Assembly (NCBI GenBank): GCA_963834265.1
Contig: CAWIAU010000001.1
Location: forward strand, 135,572 to 199,571
Direction: 5' to 3'
DNA length: 64,000 nucleotides
Origin: an uncultured bacterium
GTDB taxonomy: Bacteria; Patescibacteriota; Saccharimonadia; Saccharimonadales; 2-12-FULL-41-12
Under the pieces are notes generated by a model, which was not told the DNA's origin, did not search any database, and worked only from the letters and a program-made list of their open reading frames with translations. Position numbers and translations under genes: made by a program. Below are positions 2,516 through 59,612 of the stretch, piece after piece (the first letter of the stretch is position 1; each line of letters begins with the position of its first letter).

Positions 2516-3187
2516 ATGAATATTGTAGATAGGTGCCTGGAAACTGTAGCGCCACATACCTGTTTTGTATGTGGCCTGGAGGGTGCGTTGCTTTGCAATT
2601 CCTGCTCTATGGAAGCCTTCCTACCTGTTCCTTCCCGTTGCTATCGTTGTCATGTAGCGACCACACAGAGCCGTGTTTGTGCGAATTGCTATCGGGTGGT
2701 GTCTTTGAGTTCCGTATGGGTAGCTACCCGTTATGCGGAGCATGCCAAAGAGCTGATCAGAAGGTTCAAATTTGAACGCGCCAAACAGGCTGCCGATATT
2801 GTGGCCCGCACCATAGATCAGAGATTACCAATACTTCCGGACAGTGTAGTGGTGTCTCATATTCCAACCGCAAATTCCCGTGTCCGTGTCCGGGGCTATG
2901 ATCAGGCGGAGCTCATTGCCCGCCGACTTTGCCGTATCAGGGGGTGGCAGTTTACTTCTCTGTTACTTCGTCGTGGGACGGGACGTCAGCTGGGAGCCAA
3001 GAGGAGTCAACGCTTCATGCAGTTGGAGAGTGCTTTCACGGTTCGTAATCAGAATCTGGTAACCGGAGCCTACGTTTTACTTATTGATGACGTGTTAACC
3101 ACCGGTGCAACCGTGGAAGCTGCTGCCCGATTGCTTAAAGATGCGGGGGCCAAAACTATCGAAGCTGCGGTTTTTGCTCAGCCGTAG
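2516..3187 (+). CDS. comF: ComF family protein (phosphoribosyltransferase-domain competence protein)
   Basis: 223 aa. N-terminal Cys-rich zinc-ribbon-like segment (CFVCG..CNSC..CYRC..CANC) and a C-terminal PRTase motif VLLIDDVLTTGATV. Confidence 0.8.
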   Translation: MNIVDRCLETVAPHTCFVCGLEGALLCNSCSMEAFLPVPSRCYRCHVATTQSRVCANCYRVVSLSSVWVATRYAEHAKELIRRFKFERAKQAADIVARTIDQRLPILPDSVVVSHIPTANSRVRVRGYDQAELIARRLCRIRGWQFTSLLLRRGTGRQLGAKRSQRFMQLESAFTVRNQNLVTGAYVLLIDDVLTTGATVEAAARLLKDAGAKTIEAAVFAQP

Positions 3188-3199
3188 AGTTGACAGACG

Positions 3200-3365
3200 T
3201 GGTGCACCCGGCAAGATTCGACCTTTGTCCGGCAAAACAAAAACTAGTTTTGCTAGAACAAAACCTTTCAGGGTGGCAGGCGGTCAATGTCCACCGGACA
3301 TTGTCGTTCGAATCTTGGACAACCAGACCAAATAAAATACCGATCACTGGGATCGGCGTATTATT
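3200..3365 (-). repeat. tRNA-linked structured module, copy A (3' of tRNA-Arg), ending in a 22-nt duplicate of the tRNA-Arg 3' end
   Basis: 3200-3221 is identical to 3366-3387 (TCGAATCTTGCCGGGTGCACCA on the minus strand). A 48-nt block is near-identical to 4482-4528 in the opposite orientation. A compensatory hairpin is present. Confidence 0.8.
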
Positions 3366-3442
3366 TGGTGCACCCGGCAAGATTCGAACCTGCGACCTTT
3401 GGCTCCGCAAGCCAACGCTCTATCCAGCTGAGCTACGGGTGC
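3366..3442 (-). tRNA. tRNA-Arg (anticodon GCG)
   Basis: 77-nt cloverleaf read by hand: GCACCCG-TA-GCTC-AGCTGGATA-GAGC-G-TTGGC-TTGCGGA-GCCAA-AGGTC-GCAGG-TTCGAAT-CTTGC-CGGGTGC-A-CCA. CCA is encoded. Confidence 0.85.
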
Positions 3443-6816: not shown

Positions 6817-7377
6817 TTACTTAAACAATTCTTTCTTTTTTTGGCCTCCCACGCGGTGGTCGGTGTTGCGGGTTAGACAATAGGCAATTGCCGGAGCCAG
6901 GATATACAACAAGACGACGACTGACACCAGCTCGGGCGCCAAACCCAGTCCAAAGTGTCCACCAGGAGGATCACCATGCAATTGGTTCTGTTCGTCGCAC
7001 CACCAGCTTGGTGGGTATCGCCACTGGCTAAAATGGTACATTACGGCATAGATTGGTAGCGTGACAGCCAGACTTGCTGCCGACACAAACAACTGTCGTT
7101 TGGCGAGTGCATGCCGTGGGCGATAGCGCTTTGAACCAGCCCTCACAAAAGATATCAGCAGGAAAAGCCCTATGACGATCCATAGCAGGACGCCAAATAT
7201 TTTGGGGCCGTTTCCCATGTTTAGACCTTGAACAAAGCTATCCCCCTCTGCATAGGCAAAGCAGTGCGCAGTGTCATCCCACCACTTGACCAAAAAAAAC
7301 GGCACCAGTACCATCAGCGGCAGCGCTGCAAAGCGTAGCCAGAGCCACGTTTTCTCCGATAGTTTAAGATTTTTCAT
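6817..7377 (-). CDS. Hypothetical integral membrane protein, co-transcribed with padR
   Basis: 186 aa with multiple TM segments. Overlaps the padR stop by 14 nt on the same strand. Confidence 0.6.
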   Translation of the reverse strand: MKNLKLSEKTWLWLRFAALPLMVLVPFFLVKWWDDTAHCFAYAEGDSFVQGLNMGNGPKIFGVLLWIVIGLFLLISFVRAGSKRYRPRHALAKRQLFVSAASLAVTLPIYAVMYHFSQWRYPPSWWCDEQNQLHGDPPGGHFGLGLAPELVSVVVLLYILAPAIAYCLTRNTDHRVGGQKKKELFK

Positions 7378-7753
7378 TAAATTCTCCTTCTATAAGTTTT
7401 TTGATCTGGGGTTTATAAAAAACGGATGTTACATTACGTGTTATAAACTGGCCTAACACGTTGTTGCCGATTGAAGTTAGTGAGTAGAGTTTACGATCCG
7501 GTCCGGCTTTATTCTGCTCTGTATTAAAATCAACCAGCTCTGCTTCGTAGTAGCGGCGTAACGCCCGATACATGCTTTGATCGTCAGCGGTCAAGGTACC
7601 GTTTGTCGACGTATCTATGAAGACCTTAATCTCAGCCATGTGTTTTGCGCCGTCCTTTAGGGCCAGCATGATCCACAGCGTTAGCTGCCCTTTTTTGAAG
7701 GCCTCTTCCCAGCCTTCCAACAACTTCCGTTCGTATGAATCATCAGCTACCAT
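7364..7753 (-). CDS. PadR family transcriptional regulator
   Basis: 129 aa. The winged-helix PadR pattern is recognisable (LTLWIMLALKDGAKHMAEI...SMYRALRRYYEAELV...RKLYSLTSIG). Confidence 0.8.
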   Translation of the reverse strand: MVADDSYERKLLEGWEEAFKKGQLTLWIMLALKDGAKHMAEIKVFIDTSTNGTLTADDQSMYRALRRYYEAELVDFNTEQNKAGPDRKLYSLTSIGNNVLGQFITRNVTSVFYKPQIKKLIEGEFNEKS

Positions 7754-10765: not shown

Positions 10766-11026
10766 TTTTGTAGATTCGGGTCCGATATAACCGTCAAGGT
10801 GCATACATGATTCTTCGAAAGCAATGCGATCAGGCTTAAGACCGCGGGGATCAGCCGTACAGAGCGCTTCTGCGTTATAGTTCACCGGGTTGGTGAGTTG
10901 TATTGTCTGATCTGTGGCCAAAGATCCCGGAGATGTTCCGCGTGCGATACCAGTAAAGGTTTTTCTGTCAGCCAATGCCGGAATATTCACGCATCGATCG
11001 TAGCCGGCTGTTGTATCTATACCCAT
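10748..11026 (-). CDS. Hypothetical protein (92 aa), translationally coupled to valS
   Basis: Its ATG overlaps the valS TAA stop (TAATG). No family recognised. Confidence 0.4.
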   Translation of the reverse strand: MGIDTTAGYDRCVNIPALADRKTFTGIARGTSPGSLATDQTIQLTNPVNYNAEALCTADPRGLKPDRIAFEESCMHLDGYIGPESTKSAIQA

Positions 11027-13674
11027 TATTTCAGATAAATGAAGTCAAATTGTTTAAGTTGCTTCTCGATCGCTTCAACTTCACTTTGCAGGTCTTTTTG
11101 CTGCTGTTTGCTCTCTTCTACCAATTTTTTCGGAGCTTTTTTGATGTAGGCCGGATTACCCAGACGGTTTACCAGGACATGATCTTGTTTTTTGAGCTCT
11201 TCCCTCCTGGCCAGCAGCTTATCCAAAAAGCGTCTTGCTACATCTTCGTCTACATCAATCCATGCCGTAACCGGTGTTTGTGTCAGGCGCAGGCCTTTGG
11301 CCTCGTAGGCGGGTTTGATTTCGTCCAGCCTTGCCAGGGCGACGACCAGCTTGCTGTTATTTTTTATCAAAGGTGAATCTTTGTAATAGAGGGCTGTGTA
11401 TTTGAGCCTCAGCATGGTTTTTATCTGTCTTATCTCGCCGATAATCACTTGCAGTTGTTCAAACTCTTTCGCAATCCTGACATCGTGTTTGACAGATTTG
11501 GGCCAAGGTGTTGTGATTAATAAATTATCATTCTCCGGATTGAGAGTCTGCCATATAGTTTCGGTTACAAATGGCGCGAAGGGGTGAGCTAGTTTGAGGA
11601 TAGTCTCCAGACCGTACGTCAATACGCCGTAGTTCAGGCTGTGCTTGCTGGACTCTATGTACCAATCGGCAAAATCGTCCCACGTCAGATGGTACAGCTC
11701 ATTATAGGCGCCGCTGAAATCGAATTTTTCGATAGATTTGTCAATGGAATCAATCGAATCTGACAGTTTCTTTAGTATCCAGTGATCTGCCGCCGATCGT
11801 GCTTCGGGTGCTTCCCCTGCCTGCCTGCCTTCAGACAGACTCTCGTAGTAGCGGGCTATGTTCCAGAGCTTATTGTTGAAGTTGCGGTTGGCTTCGACCT
11901 TATCGGTGCTCCAGCTTTGGTCATTTCCGGGTGATACTCCCATGACGAGAGCCAGACGCATGGCATCAGTGCCGTATTTTTCGATAATCTCCAGAGGATC
12001 AATGATTGATTCGGGGCGGCTCTTGCTCATTTTCTTTCCATCGGTGGTTCGGATCATACCGTGCAAAAATACAGTTTTGAATGGCACTTGACCAGTTGCG
12101 TAAGTGGTAGACAGAATCATTTTTGCAACCCAGATAGGCAGGATGTCCATACCGGTTTCCATGACGGTTGTAGGGTGGTAGGCCTGATAATCTTTACTCT
12201 TTGCTAACAGGTCTATAAGCTCAAGCGAAGTATCAGATGTAAGTGCAGGATCAAGCAAAGTGCTCCATGTCCAGAGTGAAGAGCTGAACCAGGTGTCGAG
12301 GGTATCCGGATCCTGCTCCCATTCACGGAATCCTTCGCTCTCGTCATCCGGAGGAGTCAGACCAACATAGATTTCTTCTTTCCCGTCTGCATCGGTTCGA
12401 TACCACACCGGAATGCGGTGGCCCCACCAGATTTGGCGGCTCAGGCACCAGTCATGGAGATTATTAACCCAGTGAAAGTAAAGTTTCTCAAATCGTTTCG
12501 GTACAATCTTTATGTCACCATCATTTATTACGGCCTGCATAACTTCTTTCAGAGAATGTTTTTTGCCTTTCCACTTCACTGCTTTCCTGTTGACGTCTAC
12601 GAACCACTGTAGCCTGATCTGGGGTTCAATAACGCCTTTGCCACGATCATTAACAGCAATATTGTGCACATATTCCTTGTCTACGTTGAGCATCAGGCCT
12701 TTTTTCTTCAGCTTTTCCACTATCCCGGCTCTGGCAACACCTATTTCCTGACCGGCAAACTCCCCTGCTATCGGTAATAATTTGCCATGAAAATCTATAA
12801 TCTGTGTGCGGTCCAGATTGTGGCGCTCAGCAACCTCGAAGTCGACGTGGCTATGCCAGGGGGTAATAGTCATCACGCCGGTACCGAACTCCGGATCAAT
12901 AGCCGTATCTTTAATAACAGTAGCTGTTACTGGTCCGTTGATCCACTCTGCTTCGAAGGTATCGCCGTGCTTATAATCACGATAGCGCAGGTCATCGGGG
13001 TGCATCACTACGTATTTATCGCCGAATTTCGTTTCCGGACGTGCCGTGCCGATTCGGAATGGTCCGTACTGTAGCGTGTAGAATTCCCCTTTTTCTTCCT
13101 GATACATTACTTCATCGTCAGAAACAGTAGTTTGTAAGTTGGGATCCCAGTTTACGATACGGTTACCTCTGTAAATCAGGCCGTCATTGTACATGCTCAT
13201 AAAAACTTCGTTGACAGCGCGGTTGAGTGATTCATCCAGAGTGTAGCGCATGCGTGTCCAGTCAGCGCTGGCACCCATGGCCCGCATCTGGGCGATCATA
13301 GTATCCCGGCTGTTGCCTACGAACTCACGAGTCCGGCGCAGGAACTCTTCCCGCCCGATTTCGTGTTTGTCAGTTCCCTCTTCGGCTAATTTCTTCTCCA
13401 TCAGCGCATTGACAGCAAGTGCAGCATGATCTGTTCCCGGTACCCATAAAGCATCCTTGCCCTTTTGGCGGGCATGACGAATCATGATGTCCTGCAGTGT
13501 CAGGAATATTGCATGGTGAACCCCCAGTGTACCGGTCTCATTCGGCGGGGGCATACTGATAGTAAATCGTTCTTTTTTGCTGTCCGGATCAGCGATAAAA
13601 GCTCCGCTACGCTCCCACAGAGCATAGATATCCGCTTCGTACTCTCCGGGTTCATAAACTTTAGCCAACTTCAT
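11026..13674 (-). CDS. valS: Valine--tRNA ligase
   Basis: 882 aa. Class I motifs are present (PPPNETGTLGVHHA; KMSKSRP), with a ValRS-type editing domain and a C-terminal coiled coil. Confidence 0.95.
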   Translation of the reverse strand: MKLAKVYEPGEYEADIYALWERSGAFIADPDSKKERFTISMPPPNETGTLGVHHAIFLTLQDIMIRHARQKGKDALWVPGTDHAALAVNALMEKKLAEEGTDKHEIGREEFLRRTREFVGNSRDTMIAQMRAMGASADWTRMRYTLDESLNRAVNEVFMSMYNDGLIYRGNRIVNWDPNLQTTVSDDEVMYQEEKGEFYTLQYGPFRIGTARPETKFGDKYVVMHPDDLRYRDYKHGDTFEAEWINGPVTATVIKDTAIDPEFGTGVMTITPWHSHVDFEVAERHNLDRTQIIDFHGKLLPIAGEFAGQEIGVARAGIVEKLKKKGLMLNVDKEYVHNIAVNDRGKGVIEPQIRLQWFVDVNRKAVKWKGKKHSLKEVMQAVINDGDIKIVPKRFEKLYFHWVNNLHDWCLSRQIWWGHRIPVWYRTDADGKEEIYVGLTPPDDESEGFREWEQDPDTLDTWFSSSLWTWSTLLDPALTSDTSLELIDLLAKSKDYQAYHPTTVMETGMDILPIWVAKMILSTTYATGQVPFKTVFLHGMIRTTDGKKMSKSRPESIIDPLEIIEKYGTDAMRLALVMGVSPGNDQSWSTDKVEANRNFNNKLWNIARYYESLSEGRQAGEAPEARSAADHWILKKLSDSIDSIDKSIEKFDFSGAYNELYHLTWDDFADWYIESSKHSLNYGVLTYGLETILKLAHPFAPFVTETIWQTLNPENDNLLITTPWPKSVKHDVRIAKEFEQLQVIIGEIRQIKTMLRLKYTALYYKDSPLIKNNSKLVVALARLDEIKPAYEAKGLRLTQTPVTAWIDVDEDVARRFLDKLLARREELKKQDHVLVNRLGNPAYIKKAPKKLVEESKQQQKDLQSEVEAIEKQLKQFDFIYLK

Positions 13675-16997: not shown

Positions 16998-18284
16998 ATG
17001 AATCCGAAAAAATTAGTGCGGAAAGTTGTCCCGAATACAGCGGTCAAAAGGCTGGAGAAGAGTTATCGCATAGGGCGGGGATTGGCGTGGCAGACACTGT
17101 ACGGCTTTCCGGCGCGCGGCATGAAAGTTATTGCAGTCACCGGTACCAATGGCAAAAGCACCACATGCGCTTATATCAACGAAGTTCTCAAAGCGGCCGG
17201 CTATAAAACAGCTGTGTTAACCACCGTATTTTATGAGGTAGCAGGTAGGCGTACGCCAAATAAAACTCACCAGACAATGGATAAGCAGTCAATCCTGCAA
17301 AGCTTTTTTGCCCGGGCAAGAAAGGTCAATGTTGACAGGGTGATTTTAGAGGTTACAAGCCACGCAATTCATCAGGATCGTATTATGGGTATACCTGTAG
17401 AAATTGCCGTTGTGACCAATCTGACCCCTGAGCATCTGGATTATCACAAGACAATGAAGGAATACGCACGAGTCAAATCATTGCTCCTGCGTGATTACGG
17501 CGCCAAGTGGGCCATTCTGAATGCTGATGACCAGTGGTATGACTATTTCCGGGGCCGTGCCAGGGCAAAAATATTCTCATTCGGGAAGCAGGCGGGAACC
17601 GACGCTCAGATAAAATCAGTCAAACTTGGAGCCAAGGATTCAGAAGCAGTTATCGAAACTGAGCTTAAGAAAATCCCGGTCAAAACCCATCTACTCGGCG
17701 AAGTAAACATATTCAACGCCTCTGCTGCCGCCAGCGTAGGCATCATACTGGGTCTGGAAAGCAAAGTAATTGAGGAGGGCATTGCCAATCTGAAGGGGCT
17801 GGACGGGCGTCTGGAGCCGGTGGAGGCGGGACAGGACTTCACTGTACTGGTGGATTTTGCCGTCACCCCTGATGCGATAGAACAGGTGCTTACATCTCTC
17901 AGGCAAATTGCCCGGGGGCGGGTAATGATTGTATTTGGCGCCACCGGTGATCGCGACAAACCCAAACGGCCTCTGATGGGCGAGGTAGCAGCGCAACTTG
18001 CCGACAAAATTTTCCTGACCGACGACGAAACGTATAGCGAAGATCCTGAGGCCATCCGGCAAGCCGTCTACGAAGGCATCAGGAAAAAGGGGGGCGAAGC
18101 CAAAACCTTCATAATCCCTGACCGTAAAGAAGCTATAGAAGCCGCTTTCCTGAAGGCAAAAGCCGGCGATATTGTATTGCTCACCGGTATAGGCCACGAA
18201 GACCACCGCAACATGGGCGGCAAAAAGATTCCATGGAATGAATTAGAGATAGCCCGAACACTTCTCGAACCCAAAGTGCGATAG
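16998..18284 (+). CDS. murE: Mur ligase family protein, most like UDP-MurNAc-tripeptide synthetase (MurE)
   Basis: 428 aa. P-loop VTGTNGKSTT, middle and C-terminal Mur ligase domains, and LTDDETYSEDP at the position of the MurE DNPR motif. Confidence 0.7.
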   Translation: MNPKKLVRKVVPNTAVKRLEKSYRIGRGLAWQTLYGFPARGMKVIAVTGTNGKSTTCAYINEVLKAAGYKTAVLTTVFYEVAGRRTPNKTHQTMDKQSILQSFFARARKVNVDRVILEVTSHAIHQDRIMGIPVEIAVVTNLTPEHLDYHKTMKEYARVKSLLLRDYGAKWAILNADDQWYDYFRGRARAKIFSFGKQAGTDAQIKSVKLGAKDSEAVIETELKKIPVKTHLLGEVNIFNASAAASVGIILGLESKVIEEGIANLKGLDGRLEPVEAGQDFTVLVDFAVTPDAIEQVLTSLRQIARGRVMIVFGATGDRDKPKRPLMGEVAAQLADKIFLTDDETYSEDPEAIRQAVYEGIRKKGGEAKTFIIPDRKEAIEAAFLKAKAGDIVLLTGIGHEDHRNMGGKKIPWNELEIARTLLEPKVR

Positions 18285-25083: not shown

Positions 25084-26082
25084 CTACAGGCCGAGTACTT
25101 TGAGACCGTTAACTGTCGCTATGTCGGCCAGCACATCCATATCATATATACGCTGGGCTTCCAGCAGGAAATGCAGTTCGGTCCACATGTCACCGTCGTT
25201 GAATGGTTTGTATATATCCTGAGTGTTGTCGGTGCCGATTGCAACTGTCAATCCGGCAGCAATCATTTCTTTGACGGGGGCGATGGCATTATGAATAGGG
25301 CCGATCACATCATGATCACGGGCGGCTACCCAGCTGTTATCTATCCATCCCACCGGGCAGGCGACTACCATAACTCCGGCATCTGCCATCCTTGCGTACA
25401 GGTCTTGCCGATATTCCTTCGGTTGTGCACCGACTGATATGCAATGAACAGCTACCACCTTCCCCTGGTAACCGTGTTCGACGGTTTTTGCCACCAACAG
25501 CTCTGTGTCACGCTGTTCGGGAGAATTAAACTGATCCATATGTGCGTGGATCATTTTGCCGCCGTTCTTTTTTGCAGCTTCGAATAATATGTCGAGGTGT
25601 TCGGCTTCGTGGCCGGCATCTTTTTCGGGCAAACCACCAATTATATCAACAAATTCTGCACCGATTTCAAACCATTTTCGTGCTTCCGGCCCGGTCACGC
25701 CTTTGACTACCTGATTGATGAATTTGATCTCGATACTTCCCTTAAAGGTTTCACGCAATTTTTGAGCAGCTTTAATAGCCTTATCTTCAATCACCGGATC
25801 AACATCGATAAAAGTTCCTAGGGCCTGAGTTCCTTGCCGGCAGAGGTCTTCTACGGTATAAGCCATGTGGCTGTAGATATCATCGACACTGGATTTGGAT
25901 TTCAACTCATCAGGGAAATCCCACTTTTGTTGCAGCGTACCGTTTACAAGTTTGAAATTCTCTTCGTTCAGGATGTAAGCCCGGTCAATATGGGCATGAG
26001 CATTCACCCAGCCGCCCTTACCCTTAATCTTATCAAGCAAAATTTGCTTAGGATTAAAATCGGTATTAATCATGGCGAACAA
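25084..26082 (-). CDS. Amidohydrolase superfamily protein (cytosine deaminase-like)
   Basis: 332 aa. Metal-ligand pattern NAHAHIDR ... HAHMDQ ... VAVHCIS ... IGTDN. Confidence 0.6.
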   Translation of the reverse strand: MFAMINTDFNPKQILLDKIKGKGGWVNAHAHIDRAYILNEENFKLVNGTLQQKWDFPDELKSKSSVDDIYSHMAYTVEDLCRQGTQALGTFIDVDPVIEDKAIKAAQKLRETFKGSIEIKFINQVVKGVTGPEARKWFEIGAEFVDIIGGLPEKDAGHEAEHLDILFEAAKKNGGKMIHAHMDQFNSPEQRDTELLVAKTVEHGYQGKVVAVHCISVGAQPKEYRQDLYARMADAGVMVVACPVGWIDNSWVAARDHDVIGPIHNAIAPVKEMIAAGLTVAIGTDNTQDIYKPFNDGDMWTELHFLLEAQRIYDMDVLADIATVNGLKVLGL

Positions 26083-26176
26083 TGTTACTCCGGTTAGTGT
26101 TTTACTCCAACAATATTAACACTTTACGATACTTTTAGCGGCAAAGCTTTTTATTTTCACTTCTGTATGCTATTAT

Positions 26177-26303
26177 ATGTTTATGGTTTTATTGCAAACT
26201 ACAAATACTAACCGTCGCAGTTCACGTATTCACGGGAACTGTCCTTGTAATTGTTAAAATAAATTGTAAGACTCCAAGACAGCTCCCGTAAGGGAGCTTT
26301 TTT
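26177..26303 (+). promoter_or_regulatory. Candidate Arg-codon leader peptide + terminator/antiterminator attenuator upstream of argH
   Basis: Leader ORF 26177-26257 encodes MFMVLLQTTNTNRRSSRIHGNCPCNC. Segments: 1 = 26217-26223, 2 = 26235-26243, 3 = 26278-26287, 4 = 26292-26298, followed by a T-run. The 1:2, 2:3 and 3:4 pairings are mutually exclusive. Confidence 0.5.
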
Positions 26304-26325
26304 AATGTAAGATAAAGGAGAAATT

Positions 26326-27522
26326 ATGAACAAACTATGGCAAGGTTCTGGCAGCGGAAAGCTACATCCGTTGATTGAGGCGTATACGGTAGGTGAGGAT
26401 TACCTGAGCGACCAACAGTTGCTGGGTTACGATATTCAGGCGAGTAAAGCGCATGGTTCAATGCTGCAGAGTATTGGTGTGTTGGATGCCGGCGAGCTGG
26501 ACAAGCTACTAGCTTCGCTTGATGAGCTGCAAAAGGAATGGGAACAGGGAAGATTTAAGATAGAACAGCATCAGGAAGACGGACATACGGCAATAGAGCA
26601 ATATTTGACAGATAAGCTGGGAGATATAGGTAAAAAACTGCATACCGGACGCAGCAGGAATGACCAGTCACTGGTCATGACCAGGCTGTATATGAAGGAA
26701 AATCTGAAAACGATACAGACGCTGGTAGATAATCTGTCAGCTGCGTATGCGAAGACTGCACAATCGGCCGGTACCACGCCTATGCCAGGCTATACACACC
26801 TGCAAAAAGCCATGCCCACGACGGTGGCAATCTGGCTGGATTCGTTTGCGGCGGCATTTACCGATATGAAATATCCGCTTCAGGCCGCGCAAACTGTAAT
26901 TGATCAGAACCCATTGGGCTCAGCTGCCGGCTTCGGCGTAAGTCTGGGCATTGACAGGGAACATACAACCAAAACGCTGGGCTTTGGCAAGGTTCAGGAA
27001 AACACCATGTACTGCGGCTTGTCCCGCGGGCTTTTTGAAGCGATTGCCGTGCAGTCACTCAGTCCGCTGATGGTTCTGGCTGGTAAATTTGCCCAGGACA
27101 TGCTGATGTTCACTACTGAAGAATTCGGGTTTTTCAGTCTGCCGGATACATTTACCACCGGGTCGTCGATAATGCCGCACAAACATAATTACGATTTGTT
27201 CGAGATCATGCGTGGTGAGGCGCACGCTTTCGGCTCGTATGTCCACCAGCTGGAATCAGTATCCGGTGCCATCGGCAGCGGATACCAGCGTGACCTGCAA
27301 TTAACCAAGGGTGTAACGTTGCATGCTTTCGGCGTCGCCAGGTCTACCCTGGGAGTCCTGTGCCTTGCTGTCGATAACCTGCAAATAAATAAAGACAAAC
27401 TCAAAGCCTCAATAACCAGCGAAATGCTCAGCGTCTCCGAGATCAATAAGTTGGTAGAACAGGGTATGCCATTCCGCGATGCCTATAACCAGATCAAACT
27501 CGAGCTCCACAAACTCGATTAG
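26326..27522 (+). CDS. argH: Argininosuccinate lyase
   Basis: 398 aa. TGRSRNDQ and the fumarate-lyase signature GSSIMPHKHN are present. AAAGGAG RBS. Confidence 0.88.
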   Translation: MNKLWQGSGSGKLHPLIEAYTVGEDYLSDQQLLGYDIQASKAHGSMLQSIGVLDAGELDKLLASLDELQKEWEQGRFKIEQHQEDGHTAIEQYLTDKLGDIGKKLHTGRSRNDQSLVMTRLYMKENLKTIQTLVDNLSAAYAKTAQSAGTTPMPGYTHLQKAMPTTVAIWLDSFAAAFTDMKYPLQAAQTVIDQNPLGSAAGFGVSLGIDREHTTKTLGFGKVQENTMYCGLSRGLFEAIAVQSLSPLMVLAGKFAQDMLMFTTEEFGFFSLPDTFTTGSSIMPHKHNYDLFEIMRGEAHAFGSYVHQLESVSGAIGSGYQRDLQLTKGVTLHAFGVARSTLGVLCLAVDNLQINKDKLKASITSEMLSVSEINKLVEQGMPFRDAYNQIKLELHKLD

Positions 27523-27684
27523 TCAGTGTCTGATTGACAGAACAAACTAAATAAAGTAAGCTTTTGATAAATAAAGACTAAAAAATAAAAAAACTTATTG
27601 ATTATTGAATAAAAATATATAAAGTTTTGATAATTTATGATAAAAAACTATAAATACGATAAATAGTGAATATAGTATAACGTT

Positions 27685-28632
27685 ATGGCAATAGCTCTGG
27701 AAATGGAAAGAGTTCACGGCAGTCCTGGCTTTGCAGCCATTGATCTGGTGGGCAAAGGCACCGAAGGAGAAGTTTATCTCCGGGACTTCCGGGCTCTTGA
27801 GGCTTCCCGCTTCGCAGTTGTGAAGATTGGAGGTGAAATGATCCGGAACCCTGATCAGCTCCAAAGAATTGCCTTAGGGATAGCATTTTTACAGGGACAA
27901 AGGCTTTATCCTGTAATTGTTCATGGCGGTGGAGTGCAAATTACTGATGGACTGGAAGAGGCAGGTATAGAATCGGATCGTATTGAAGGCAAGCGCGTAA
28001 CCAGTCTCGGCGGATCTCTGGTCGTGAAAACTGCTCTGGATGAAGTTAACCAACGTCTATGTGATGCAATTGAGGCATATGGCGGCCGGACGATCGGAAT
28101 ACGAAACCGTGTTTTTGGCGCTTCAATTGAAGATGGAGATAATCTTGGTCGTGTCGGGAAAGTTGATCGTGTGGATGCCTCACAAATCTTTGCCGCAACA
28201 TCAAATGAAAAAATTGCAGTGGTCAGCTGTGTCGGTAATTTAGCGCTTTCCGATATAAACTTTTTGCCTGTGCACCTTAATATTAATGGTGACACTGCAG
28301 CAGTTGCTTTGGCGGGTGCTCTCAAGCCACAAAAATTTATATCTCTAACAGAAAAAGGCGCGGTTCTGGACGCACAGGGAAACTGGATAAAATCCCTGAC
28401 TCACCAAGAAGCTGAGCAAATGATAGCAGACGGATCTCTCACAGATGGAATGCGGCTTAAAGTCTTAGAAGGGCTAAAGTTGCACGGTTTGGGTGTTCAT
28501 GATGCGGTTATTACCAGCCCCGCGAAGTTTCTTCTCGAGCTATTTACTGACGGTGTTAGCACAATCATGCGGTCTGATGAAACGGGCCCCGTACACATTC
28601 CGCCAAGGCTTAGATCAGCAAGATTGATATAA
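27685..28632 (+). CDS. argB: Acetylglutamate kinase-like amino-acid kinase
   Basis: 315 aa. VVKIGGEMI, PVIVHGGGVQI, GKRVTS and NINGDTAAVALAGAL match ArgB motifs. Confidence 0.75.
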   Translation: MAIALEMERVHGSPGFAAIDLVGKGTEGEVYLRDFRALEASRFAVVKIGGEMIRNPDQLQRIALGIAFLQGQRLYPVIVHGGGVQITDGLEEAGIESDRIEGKRVTSLGGSLVVKTALDEVNQRLCDAIEAYGGRTIGIRNRVFGASIEDGDNLGRVGKVDRVDASQIFAATSNEKIAVVSCVGNLALSDINFLPVHLNINGDTAAVALAGALKPQKFISLTEKGAVLDAQGNWIKSLTHQEAEQMIADGSLTDGMRLKVLEGLKLHGLGVHDAVITSPAKFLLELFTDGVSTIMRSDETGPVHIPPRLRSARLI

Positions 28633-28633
28633 T

Positions 28634-30289
28634 GTGCTTAAGATGAAAGAAGAGTACATAAAAAAGCTTGCTTCGGTTTGCGCTGAGCTTTTCAAAGAGG
28701 AAGTCAAAGTTGAGCTGACGCGGCCGGAAGAGCAATTCGGTGATTATTCTACCAATGTAGCAATGCGGCTGGCCGGGAAGCTGAATAAAAATCCACGGGA
28801 TGTCGCAGAGCAGATCATAGATAAGTTAAAGATGAATGCGTCGATTGCCGGCCCGGGGTTTATAAACATTCGTTTGAGCGATAAAGCGATTTTTGATTTT
28901 ACATTTCGGGCAACTGACTTATCCGAAACGCTGAGGGGTAAGACTGTAGTAGCTGAGTATTCGGATCCAAATCCGTTCAAGGCGCTTCATGCAGGACATC
29001 TATACACAAGTCTGGTGGGTGACGGCGTGTCTAATTTGCTGGAGACGGCAGGGGCAGTGGTAAAACGCGTTAATTTTGGCGGGGATGTAGGGCTCCATGT
29101 TGGCAAGGCGATGTGGGCAATACTGCAAAAACCTGAGGCCGAACATCCTGAAAAATTGCAGGATATTCCGGAAGACGAACGCGCTGGCTGGGTAAGTGAA
29201 CGCTATGTCGAGGGGCATACAGCTTATACCGAAAACGATCAGGTAAAAAAAGAAATTACAGAGGTAAATAAACGAGTTTATCAGGTTCATGCAGATCAGG
29301 ATAAAAACTCGCCATTTGCTCAAATTTATTGGACCTGCCGGCAATGGAGTTATGATGGCTTTGACCAACTATATAGGCGTCTCGGCATGAAGCCGTTCGA
29401 CAAATATTATCCTGAAAGCGCGGTTGATAGCCTGGGGCTTGAAACAATACGAAAGCACACAGGCACCGTATATGAGGAGTCAGAGGGTGCAATAATATTT
29501 CGTGGCGAGTCATTCGGCTTATTCACGCAGGTGTTTGTAAACAGCGAAGGTTTTACTACTTATGCCGGCAAAGACGTCGGACTTATTCAGCAAAAATATA
29601 TTGATTATCGCTACGATGTTTCGTTTATTATTACCGACTTTTCACAGAAAGATCATTTGAGTGTAGTTATGAGGAGCATTGAACAATATGAGCCGGAACT
29701 GGTTGCAAAAACCATTCATCATACGCATGGACGGATTAATTTTGCTGATGGTTCAAAAATGAGTAGTCGAAGCGGAAATGTGGTCATGGCGAATGATGTG
29801 ATTGATGCTACGTTCGCGGCAGCCAGAAGCAACGACGAACCGATCATTCTCGGCGCTATCCGGTATTCTTTTCTGAAAAACCGCATTGGGGGCAATATTG
29901 CCTATGATCCGGAAGAGTCGGTAGCTCAAGAAGGTAATAGCGGGCCATATCTGCAGTACGCCTTAGTGCGCGCGCGGAGTATTCTGGGCAAAGTGGAGGC
30001 TAAAAGCTCCGAAGTTACTATCGATTCTCTTGATCAGTATGAAAGAAGTCTGGCGCGCAAGCTCAGCATGTATGGCGAGGCCTTCGAGATGGCGCTGAAT
30101 GATTACTCGCCGCACCACATCGCAGTCTATCTTTATGAACTTGCGCAGATATTCAATCGATTTTATGAGAATAGCCGCGTAGAAGGTGACCCGCGCGAAG
30201 CTATAAGAGTACAATTAGTTCGTTCATATGAAAAAGTCCTGAGTCATGGTCTTGGTTTACTGGGAATGCCTGCACCGGAGAAGATGTAG
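28634..30289 (+). CDS. argS: Arginine--tRNA ligase
   Basis: 551 aa. HIGH-type motif HAGHLYTSLVGD, an anticodon-binding C-terminal domain, and a terminal M typical of ArgRS. The start could be GTG 28634 or ATG 28643. Confidence 0.92.
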   Translation: MLKMKEEYIKKLASVCAELFKEEVKVELTRPEEQFGDYSTNVAMRLAGKLNKNPRDVAEQIIDKLKMNASIAGPGFINIRLSDKAIFDFTFRATDLSETLRGKTVVAEYSDPNPFKALHAGHLYTSLVGDGVSNLLETAGAVVKRVNFGGDVGLHVGKAMWAILQKPEAEHPEKLQDIPEDERAGWVSERYVEGHTAYTENDQVKKEITEVNKRVYQVHADQDKNSPFAQIYWTCRQWSYDGFDQLYRRLGMKPFDKYYPESAVDSLGLETIRKHTGTVYEESEGAIIFRGESFGLFTQVFVNSEGFTTYAGKDVGLIQQKYIDYRYDVSFIITDFSQKDHLSVVMRSIEQYEPELVAKTIHHTHGRINFADGSKMSSRSGNVVMANDVIDATFAAARSNDEPIILGAIRYSFLKNRIGGNIAYDPEESVAQEGNSGPYLQYALVRARSILGKVEAKSSEVTIDSLDQYERSLARKLSMYGEAFEMALNDYSPHHIAVYLYELAQIFNRFYENSRVEGDPREAIRVQLVRSYEKVLSHGLGLLGMPAPEKM

Positions 30290-59330: not shown

Positions 59331-59612
59331 ATGATTACTAGTGAGAAAAAGGCGACTATTGTCGCCGAACTGGCAAAAGACAAAAAGAACACCGGCAGTC
59401 CTGCTGCACAAGTCGGTATATTGACTGCGCGTATTCAGGAACTGACCGAGCATCTCAAGATCAATAAGAAAGATTTTGCGGCCCGCCGCGGCTTATTACA
59501 GATGGTTGGTAAGCGCAAGCGACTGCTTCGCTACATCGCAGACAGAGACAGTAAAGCGTACATTGATCTTATACAAAAGCTTGGCATTCGCGCAAGCAAG
59601 CCAAAAAGCTGA
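59331..59612 (+). CDS. rpsO: 30S ribosomal protein S15
   Basis: Start is moved to ATG 59331. GSPAAQVGILTARIQELTEHLKINKKDFAARRGLLQMVGKRKRLLRY. Confidence 0.92.
   Translation: MITSEKKATIVAELAKDKKNTGSPAAQVGILTARIQELTEHLKINKKDFAARRGLLQMVGKRKRLLRYIADRDSKAYIDLIQKLGIRASKPKS

Follow-up and report, generated by a model that had tools for sequence, protein, structure and literature searches.

A probable arginine-codon transcription attenuator with a leaderless-looking reading frame upstream of argH in Saccharimonadales

Arginine biosynthesis in bacteria is classically under the control of ArgR/AhrC, and argS is classically under the control of a T-box. Arginine is also listed under T-boxes in the literature on these leaders (PMC1262725). 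Short translated leaders that sense amino acids have been described in several systems close to the one analyzed here. In mycobacteria, polycysteine small open reading frames (sORFs) act by unmasking a ribosome-binding site (RBS) (Canestrari et al., bioRxiv 10.1101/834739; Mol Microbiol 2020). In Mycobacterium tuberculosis, the upstream open reading frame (uORF) of ilvB1 is translated and carries the regulatory codons LVVI for branched-chain amino acids, and it is not reported as leaderless (PMC13236596). In Salmonella, the speF leader orf34, a reading frame of 34 codons that is led by a Shine-Dalgarno (SD) sequence, controls polyamine synthesis through Rho-dependent termination, RBS unfolding and RNase G sensitivity (Ben-Zvi et al. 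2019, PMC6386406). In this study we analyze a 64-kb stretch of DNA from a Saccharimonadales bacterium (hereafter the window), in which the argininosuccinate lyase gene argH is preceded by a short open reading frame (ORF) with tandem Arg codons and by an intrinsic terminator. From its sequence and that of its relatives, we consider it likely that this element is an arginine-specific, ribosome-mediated transcription attenuator. Its parts in the window are the following.

26148–26176, + strand: putative leader promoter, consisting of a -35-like TTTTTA (26148–26153), a 17-nt spacer, an extended -10 TG (26168–26169) and a -10 TATTAT (26171–26176)
26183–26257, + strand: leader ORF of 24 codons encoding MVLLQTTNTNRRSSRIHGNCPCNC plus the stop, probably on a leaderless mRNA
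within 26213–26227, + strand: regulatory Arg codons read from the sequence, CGT-CGC at 26213–26218 and CGT at 26225–26227
26217–26242, + strand: helix 1:2, the anti-antiterminator and possibly a pause hairpin, GCAGTTC (segment 1, 26217–26223) with GAACTGT and an inner CGT/ACG stem
26232–26243, + strand: segment 2, the 5' arm of the antiterminator, ACGGGAACTGTC, starting 21 nt after the first Arg codon
26244–26270, + strand: weak AU-rich 9-bp hairpin nested in the 2:3 loop, -3.2 kcal/mol, in a loop region that is variable in the alignment
26278–26289, + strand: segment 3, the 3' arm of the antiterminator, overlapping the 5' arm of the terminator, GACAGCTCCCGT
26281–26303, + strand: intrinsic terminator 3:4, AGCTCCC-GTAA-GGGAGCT (26281–26298) with a T-run to 26303, a 7-bp stem with five G-C pairs
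26207–26305, + strand: match of the covariance model described below, the sole copy in the window, 94.8 bits, E = 1e-19 (next match in the window 19 bits)

The original prediction for this site had proposed a trp/his-type attenuator that reads Arg codons through three mutually exclusive pairings of four segments. When the sequence was re-read, the ORF, the codons, the segments and the terminator were all found at the positions it had given, and an unguided repeat search recovered the three pairings independently: helix 1:2 (26218–26227 with 26232–26241, 10 nt, 90%), helix 2:3 (26232–26243 with 26278–26289, 12 nt, 11 of 12 positions paired, 92%) and terminator 3:4. The cores of the two antiterminator segments are GGAACTGTC at 26235–26243 for segment 2 and GACAGCTCC at 26278–26286 for segment 3. 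The computed energies are -11.1 kcal/mol for helix 1:2 and -13.7 kcal/mol for the terminator, and helix 2:3 together with the nested hairpin reaches -14 to -18.6 kcal/mol once segment 1 is masked. The nested hairpin had been predicted as well and is present, though weak; its base corresponds to a CCUU/AAGG extension of helix 2:3 in the relatives. When the transcript is cut before segment 4 and segment 1 is masked, helix 2:3 forms in the window and takes the whole 5' arm of the terminator, and such masked, truncated folds give the same helix in eight of nine other genome loci. The unmasked transcript cut at 26287 forms helix 1:2 and leaves segment 3 free. The leader region is also more stable than its dinucleotide shuffles (z = -2.24; 3 of 200 shuffles as good). 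The terminator, whose T-run ends 22 nt before the argH ATG (26326), is the best terminator-like site in its 8-kb surroundings by a consensus scan. A stricter scan gives seven terminator sites in the 64 kb, and only the one in the leader has a co-oriented gene immediately downstream and none upstream. The other sites include those just after the tRNA-Ser and tRNA-Arg genes, suggesting that the organism uses canonical hairpin-plus-T terminators.

The strongest evidence comes from the relatives. [quoted passage not shown] Among the 11 species genomes with a related ArgH, 10 have a short RR or RRR ORF and a terminator ahead of their arginine operon. Referring to these loci by our own handles, the leader lies directly before argH in L002, L003, L005, L006, L008 and L009 and before argG-argH in L004, L007 and L010, while L011 is truncated. 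A degenerate pattern, made to span the Arg codons and segments 1 and 2, retrieved fifteen further metagenome contigs; each has the ATG, segment 3 and the terminator, so that the same element is found in 24 other loci in total. A covariance model built from 23 distinct leader sequences finds exactly one copy per locus at 52–100 bits. Pairs were counted on a MAFFT alignment. In the conformation that combines helices 1:2 and 3:4, 95.4% of the alignment cells are paired, with changes on both sides in eight pairs, a result not matched in any of 500 shuffles; slid controls give 41–56%. Taken separately, helix 1:2 is paired in 95% of cells with changes on both sides in four of nine pairs, and the terminator in 95.7% of cells with such changes in four of seven pairs. 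The antiterminator 2:3 is likewise paired in 95.7% of cells among the 23 sequences (slid controls 33–51%), and both sides change in 8 of its 10 pairs, as at one position where U-A occurs 14 times and C-G six times. The pair counts of segments 3 and 4 are not circular, because both segments lie outside the retrieval pattern. In L004, L007, L008 and L009 the logic of the four segments is rebuilt from different sequences; in L004, for instance, GGAAGCTATC is the exact complement of GATAGCTTCC. Covarying, mutually exclusive helices that share one strand are the signature of a switch and not of a plain terminator. The conservation in relatives on which the original prediction depended has therefore been found: the ORF, the Arg codons and the four segments are kept in 24 further loci with compensatory changes in the helices, which supports its trp/his-type reading of the Arg codons.

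Covariation of the helices alone does not demand translation, and the leader has no SD. Both points would suit an RNA switch that works without a ribosome reading it, such as a riboswitch or a protein- or tRNA-bound attenuator, beside which the ORF would be incidental. We regard this as the best placed of the alternatives and still as quite improbable, on account of the ORF itself. The N-terminal part of the leader peptides (8–11 codons) is only 13% identical between loci, whereas its length is constant and a single frame stays open: in 24 distinct ORFs it has no in-frame stop, while the remaining frames have 34 and 8. The ATG falls at the predicted +1. The CGY Arg run is conserved and varies by 3-nt indels only, the difference between RR and RRR leaders in the alignment being exactly one such indel. 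A conserved unpaired pocket, a T-box motif and an Rfam match are all absent, the best Rfam scores being 16–18 bits against gathering scores of 47–55. These features argue for a ribosome that reads the leader.

How such a ribosome would start is suggested by the promoter. The original prediction had stated that the leader shows neither an SD nor a clear promoter; the former holds, and as to the latter, a promoter-like -35/-10 pair stands before the leader ATG in each locus. In 24 of 24 related leaders the pair consists of TTGCAT, TTGCGT or TTGACA, a spacer of about 17 nt and TAtnnT, with the -10 ending 6–10 nt before the ATG. The promoter score is at least 7 of 12 in all leaders compared with 21% of background ATGs, and at least 8 in 67% of them compared with 6%. 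The short distance from the -10 box to the ATG in each locus implies leaderless initiation and would account for the missing SD, the leader mRNA probably being leaderless and translated as such. It also bears on the choice of start codon. The predicted ORF of 26 codons began at the in-frame ATG 26177, with a peptide MFMVLL..., and its frame, its Arg codons and its stop (TAA at 26255–26257 from either start) all stand. Its start probably does not, since the -10 box at 26171–26176 directly abuts ATG 26177, which is thus unlikely to be transcribed, and ATG 26183 is the likelier start of an ORF of 24 codons. The canonical +1 position is the A of ATG 26183, and from this start 10 codons precede the Arg run, as in most relatives.

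Leaderless-looking starts are also found elsewhere in the window. Among 57 crude ORF starts, 22 have an SD only and 19 have no SD and a -10-like TAnnnT ending 5–9 nt upstream, whereas such a hexamer stands at this distance before 6.4% of all ATGs. Examples are the ORFs at 7364–7753 (-) and 11026–13674 (-) and the starts at 16998, 34014, 36508, 51509 and 52108. Judging from these hexamers, leaderless mRNAs seem common in this Saccharimonadales genome.

The codons of the run point to arginine as the signal. Arginine takes 3 of the 24 leader codons (12.5%), compared with 5.3% in the genes of the window, and RR or RRR followed one or two codons later by a further R is the sole peptide feature that is universal in the 24 ORFs. 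The first Arg codon is codon 9–12 in all 24 leaders. Every regulatory Arg codon in all of them is CGT or CGC, whereas the genes of the window use CGY for only 46% of their arginines. The window also encodes a tRNA-Arg (3366–3442, - strand) with the anticodon GCG instead of the usual bacterial ACG, followed by its own hairpin-plus-T terminator (3339–3357, - strand). This tRNA decodes only CGU and CGC, which are the sole Arg codons at the regulatory positions of the leaders. It can be argued that any slowing of the leader ribosome would favor helix 2:3, and that two or three tandem Arg codons are few, in which case the leader would be a general sensor of translation capacity or of transcription-translation coupling, as in the stringent response, and would not be specific for arginine. 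This is very unlikely in our view, somewhat more so than a switch without a ribosome, because the Arg run is invariant and uses CGY only, because the element is linked to nothing other than genes of arginine biosynthesis, argS and their neighbors, and because the spacing is such that stalling at the Arg run would put the ribosome exactly over segment 1.

This spacing is constant among the leaders. The first Arg codon lies 18–24 nt before segment 2 in all 24 leaders, and segment 1 starts within the last codon of the Arg run, which in the window is the second Arg codon. [quoted passage not shown] A bacterial ribosome protects approximately 12–15 nt 3' of the A-site codon. With this protection, a ribosome at the Arg run would cover segment 1 and leave segment 2 free, while a ribosome finishing the ORF would come to rest either over segment 2 or in the stretch that separates it from segment 3, without ever covering segment 3. 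We therefore propose the following course of events for the arginine-specific attenuator. Transcription would start probably at or a few nucleotides from ATG 26183, and initiation on the leader ORF would be leaderless. With an ample supply of charged tRNA-Arg, the CGY decoder, the ribosome would pass the Arg codons and reach the stop at 26255–26257, on or just past segment 2, where it would keep segments 2 and 3 apart; segment 3 would then pair with segment 4, and RNA polymerase would be released at the hairpin and its U-run, 22 nt before argH. Under scarcity of arginine, the ribosome would stall with the CGT or CGC of 26213–26218 in its A site, covering segment 1 and leaving segment 2, 21 nt downstream, uncovered. 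Segment 2 would pair with segment 3 once this is transcribed, the 5' arm of the terminator would be sequestered, and transcription would read through into argH and probably into argB-argS. The efficiency of termination would in this way follow the supply of arginine.

In the main subfamily the peptide RRSSRIxGSCPC is well conserved, and from the Arg run onward the leader peptides are 60% identical, which might be expected if the nascent peptide itself were the sensor, that is, an arrest peptide for free arginine like the fungal arginine attenuator peptide, in place of the codons and charged tRNA-Arg. However, the conserved region coincides with segments 1 and 2, and the residues encoded there vary (S, G, N, D) wherever the pairing permits, while the base pairing is kept. 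The divergent members keep the Arg run alone: RRTRI in L007, RRRPRYTGGIVRV in L008 and RRRSRRFEGIAAV in L009. Moreover, an arrest peptide that stalls at high arginine would cause read-through in times of plenty, which is the wrong sign for biosynthetic genes, and we find this explanation hardly credible, even less so than a general sensor. Least credible of all is an independent small-protein or small-RNA gene with its own terminator, with argH expressed from elsewhere and no switch: a strong terminator does follow a short ORF, and divergent intergenic regions often house small genes, but the 22 nt between the T-run and argH, which include the SD, are too few for a promoter, a promoter-like site was not found within 26177–26325, a covarying antiterminator that overlaps the terminator would be purposeless in a plain terminator, and the element always stands before arg or argS operons in any gene order.

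Several points weigh against the arginine-specific attenuator. The case rests on computation, and all of the related sequences are metagenome-assembled. The closest ArgH relative, L001 (75% identity), lacks the element. The retrieval by pattern biases the conservation of segments 1 and 2 in 15 sequences, but not that of segments 3 and 4. The sensor is small, with just two or three consecutive Arg codons plus one; the -35 element of the window is poor, with three of six matches; and helix 2:3 of the window contains an A-C mismatch. In the window, L002, L007 and L009, the full-length equilibrium keeps the terminator as the minimum-energy fold even with segment 1 masked, so that, as in trp, the switch has to be a kinetic one. 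For this reason the equilibrium fold of the masked full-length leader was rejected as a test, and the folds of truncated transcripts given above were used instead. Of the helices 1:2 and 2:3, the latter is thermodynamically the stronger in most relatives, even without a ribosome; termination at ample arginine therefore needs either a ribosome between segments 2 and 3 or helix 1:2 to form first. Finally, argB-argS may not depend on the leader promoter alone, given the AT-rich spacer of 162 nt that separates them from argH. In the place of the leader, L001 has at 2770–3000 a near-consensus promoter TTGTCA-17-TATAAT and a 5' region of about 85 nt, with a mini-ORF of three codons (ATG CGT TCC TAA, one Arg codon) and a weak hairpin.

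The genes around the leader in the window are the following.

25084–26073, - strand: amidohydrolase, the divergent upstream gene (NCBIfam match)
26314–26320, + strand: SD of argH, AAAGGAG, 5 nt 5' of the ATG
26326–27522, + strand: argH, argininosuccinate lyase of 398 aa (TIGR00838, E = 5.8e-89, above the curated cutoff), the first gene under the proposed control
27685–28632, + strand: argB, acetylglutamate kinase (NCBIfam match)
28634–30289, + strand: argS, arginine--tRNA ligase (TIGR00456, E = 7.3e-86), its start abutting the argB stop

The genes argH, argB and argS form one array. The spacer between argH and argB (27523–27684) is very AT-rich and free of terminators, and it holds promoter-like sequence, including TATAGT (27671–27676) 8 nt before the ATG of argB, which has no SD. 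Because of this promoter-like sequence, argB-argS may also be transcribed from a promoter of their own, and argB is possibly leaderless. No homologues of argG, argF, argJ or argD were found in the 64-kb window. The ArgH protein covers only positions 1–384 of the 455-position TIGR00838 profile, and its short C-terminus is common to all relatives (398–405 aa). Upstream, an inverted repeat of 12 nt, 92% complementary, joins the region upstream of the amidohydrolase gene (26091–26102) to the sequence preceding the Arg codons (26203–26214). This long-range pairing was taken as probably due to chance, its 5' arm lying upstream of the inferred transcription start site in a region that is not common to the relatives. 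Between the leader terminator and the argH SD, L006 (2944–2990), L012, L014 and L016 have a second hairpin with A- and T-tracts (AAAAGCCTGAGGTTCAGGCTTTT), which could be a tandem or bidirectional terminator. Far from the locus, the minus strand has a terminator-like hairpin and T-run at 59351–59366, where the genes on either side are both on the plus strand and none on the minus strand is near.

A further element may act on the transcripts that read through the terminator:

26272–26275, + strand: segment 2.5, CUCC, conserved just 5' of segment 3 and bulged out in the 2:3 state, a possible anti-SD element

The context of segment 2.5 is GCUCCAG in most loci and ACUCCAA at 26271–26277 in the window. 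With the SD region of the gene that follows it seems to covary, the two reading CUCC/GGAG in most loci, UUCC/GGAA in L003, L013 and L024, GUCC/GGAC in L010 and CUUCA/UGAAG in L020. Cognate duplexes of segment 2.5 with the SD region have a mean of -6.67 kcal/mol compared with -5.73 kcal/mol for non-cognate ones, and 20 of 5000 permutations are as good, a result that is inflated by the relatedness of the sequences. In the window the pairing amounts to 4 bp only. A decoy helix of segment 2 with segment 2.5 was considered and rejected, since covariation with segment 2.5 is seen for the SD region and not for segment 2. Tentatively, segment 2.5 could be an anti-SD lock on read-through transcripts, which we regard as a lead and not as a finding.

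The genes found downstream of the leader in other loci extend beyond argH and argG-argH. In L016, L018, L025 and others the leader precedes argH-argF-argJ-argB-argD. In other loci it precedes an Asp/Glu-racemase-like gene (L022, 309–1070) and then argS, a GNAT-like gene (L024, 554–1069) and then argS, a GNAT gene with an AstE/AspA-like gene (L015, 4350–5683), or a protein of about 190 aa without a Pfam match (L023, 608–1198; L026, 2808–3380) and then a racemase-like gene. In L007 a 164-aa protein without a match (1224–1718) also lies directly behind an Arg leader. The generic or uncharacterized genes that stand directly behind Arg leaders are candidates for arginine-related roles. We speculate, at somewhat less than even confidence, that Saccharimonadales have an arginine 'ribulon', in which independent copies of the leaderless Arg-codon sORF attenuator would coordinate the arginine operons, argS and the GNAT, AstE/AspA-like, Asp/Glu-racemase-like and ~190-aa protein genes. 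Such a system would act as a double lock, with the terminator first and the anti-SD pairing of segment 2.5 silencing leaked transcripts, and in these reduced genomes it would take the place of ArgR-type repression. If this is true, CPR would have its first defined cis-regulatory RNA family, and the co-regulated uncharacterized genes could be assigned to arginine metabolism.

Searches for known regulators and leader families gave no match. With Rfam at the gathering score, the whole window and 14 related loci contain tRNAs only and no leader family. At permissive E values around the site, Phe_leader, preQ1-II and STnc50 appear at 16–18 bits and cover the terminator or the SD only; the best match to an Rfam leader is Phe_leader with 16.3 bits against a gathering score of 55, on the terminator only. 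The T-box model (RF00230) has no match at E <= 10 within 25900–26500. ARG boxes, searched with the E. coli-type consensus TNTGAATWWWWATTCANW only, are absent from 26075–26325 at up to three mismatches, and the window total of 16 compares with 16.2 by chance. An ARG-box-like 18-mer with two mismatches lies in the argH/argB spacer at 27604–27621 and is indistinguishable from chance. Our literature search, in which the coverage of subscription journals was incomplete, found neither an arginine leader-peptide attenuator of arg operons nor any attenuator in Saccharibacteria or Patescibacteria/CPR.

Arginine has served as the standard case of an amino acid under other control, by ArgR and, for argS, by T-boxes, and a conserved Arg-codon attenuator would fill this gap. 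It would also bring ribosome-based metabolite sensing to Saccharibacteria, whose genomes are reduced and which are mostly unculturable, and would join leaderless initiation to classical terminator/antiterminator switching. The covariance model is ready for the annotation of CPR genomes, and leaderless mRNAs, if they are as frequent in this lineage as they seem, would matter for gene calling in CPR.

Among the known systems, the Arg leader most resembles the E. coli and Salmonella leaders trpL, hisL, leuL, thrL, pheL and ilvL, with which it has in common a short ORF rich in cognate codons and the three helices 1:2, 2:3 and 3:4. As in the trpL/hisL class, an intrinsic terminator lies just before the first structural gene, the regulatory codons are at the 5' edge of segment 1, and the stop is placed so that a finishing ribosome would block helix 2:3. 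In its sequence features (leader ORF, terminator, antiterminator and anti-antiterminator) the leader agrees with the trp/his-class attenuators, yet it falls outside all Rfam leader families. Unlike the classical leaders, it is probably arginine-specific, apparently leaderless with no SD, and found in Saccharimonadales (CPR), and it shares no sequence or structure homology with the Trp_, His_, Leu_, Thr_ and Phe_leader families of Rfam. With Firmicutes T-box leaders of argS and arginine genes it would share the reading of tRNA-Arg charging and a terminator/antiterminator switch upstream of argS, but T-boxes bind uncharged tRNA directly and are untranslated. The Salmonella orf34 also senses arginine with two consecutive Arg codons through ribosome pausing and alternative mRNA folds, whereas here an intrinsic terminator and arginine synthesis genes are involved. 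The ilvB1 attenuator of M. tuberculosis combines a uORF with regulatory codons, terminator and antiterminator hairpins and a Rho-independent terminator, as the Arg leader does, although the two sequences are unrelated. With the mycobacterial Cys ribulon the likeness lies in a leaderless sensory sORF as the first cistron, here suggested by the position of the -10 box, in a codon run for the controlled amino acid, and in several operons that each have a copy of their own. It differs in its intrinsic terminator and covarying antiterminator, in reading Arg and not Cys, in its phylum, and in that a translational layer is only tentative here. Thus, the mechanism is well known and the Arg leader is not a new kind of system, while the RNA and sORF family itself is new and well supported.

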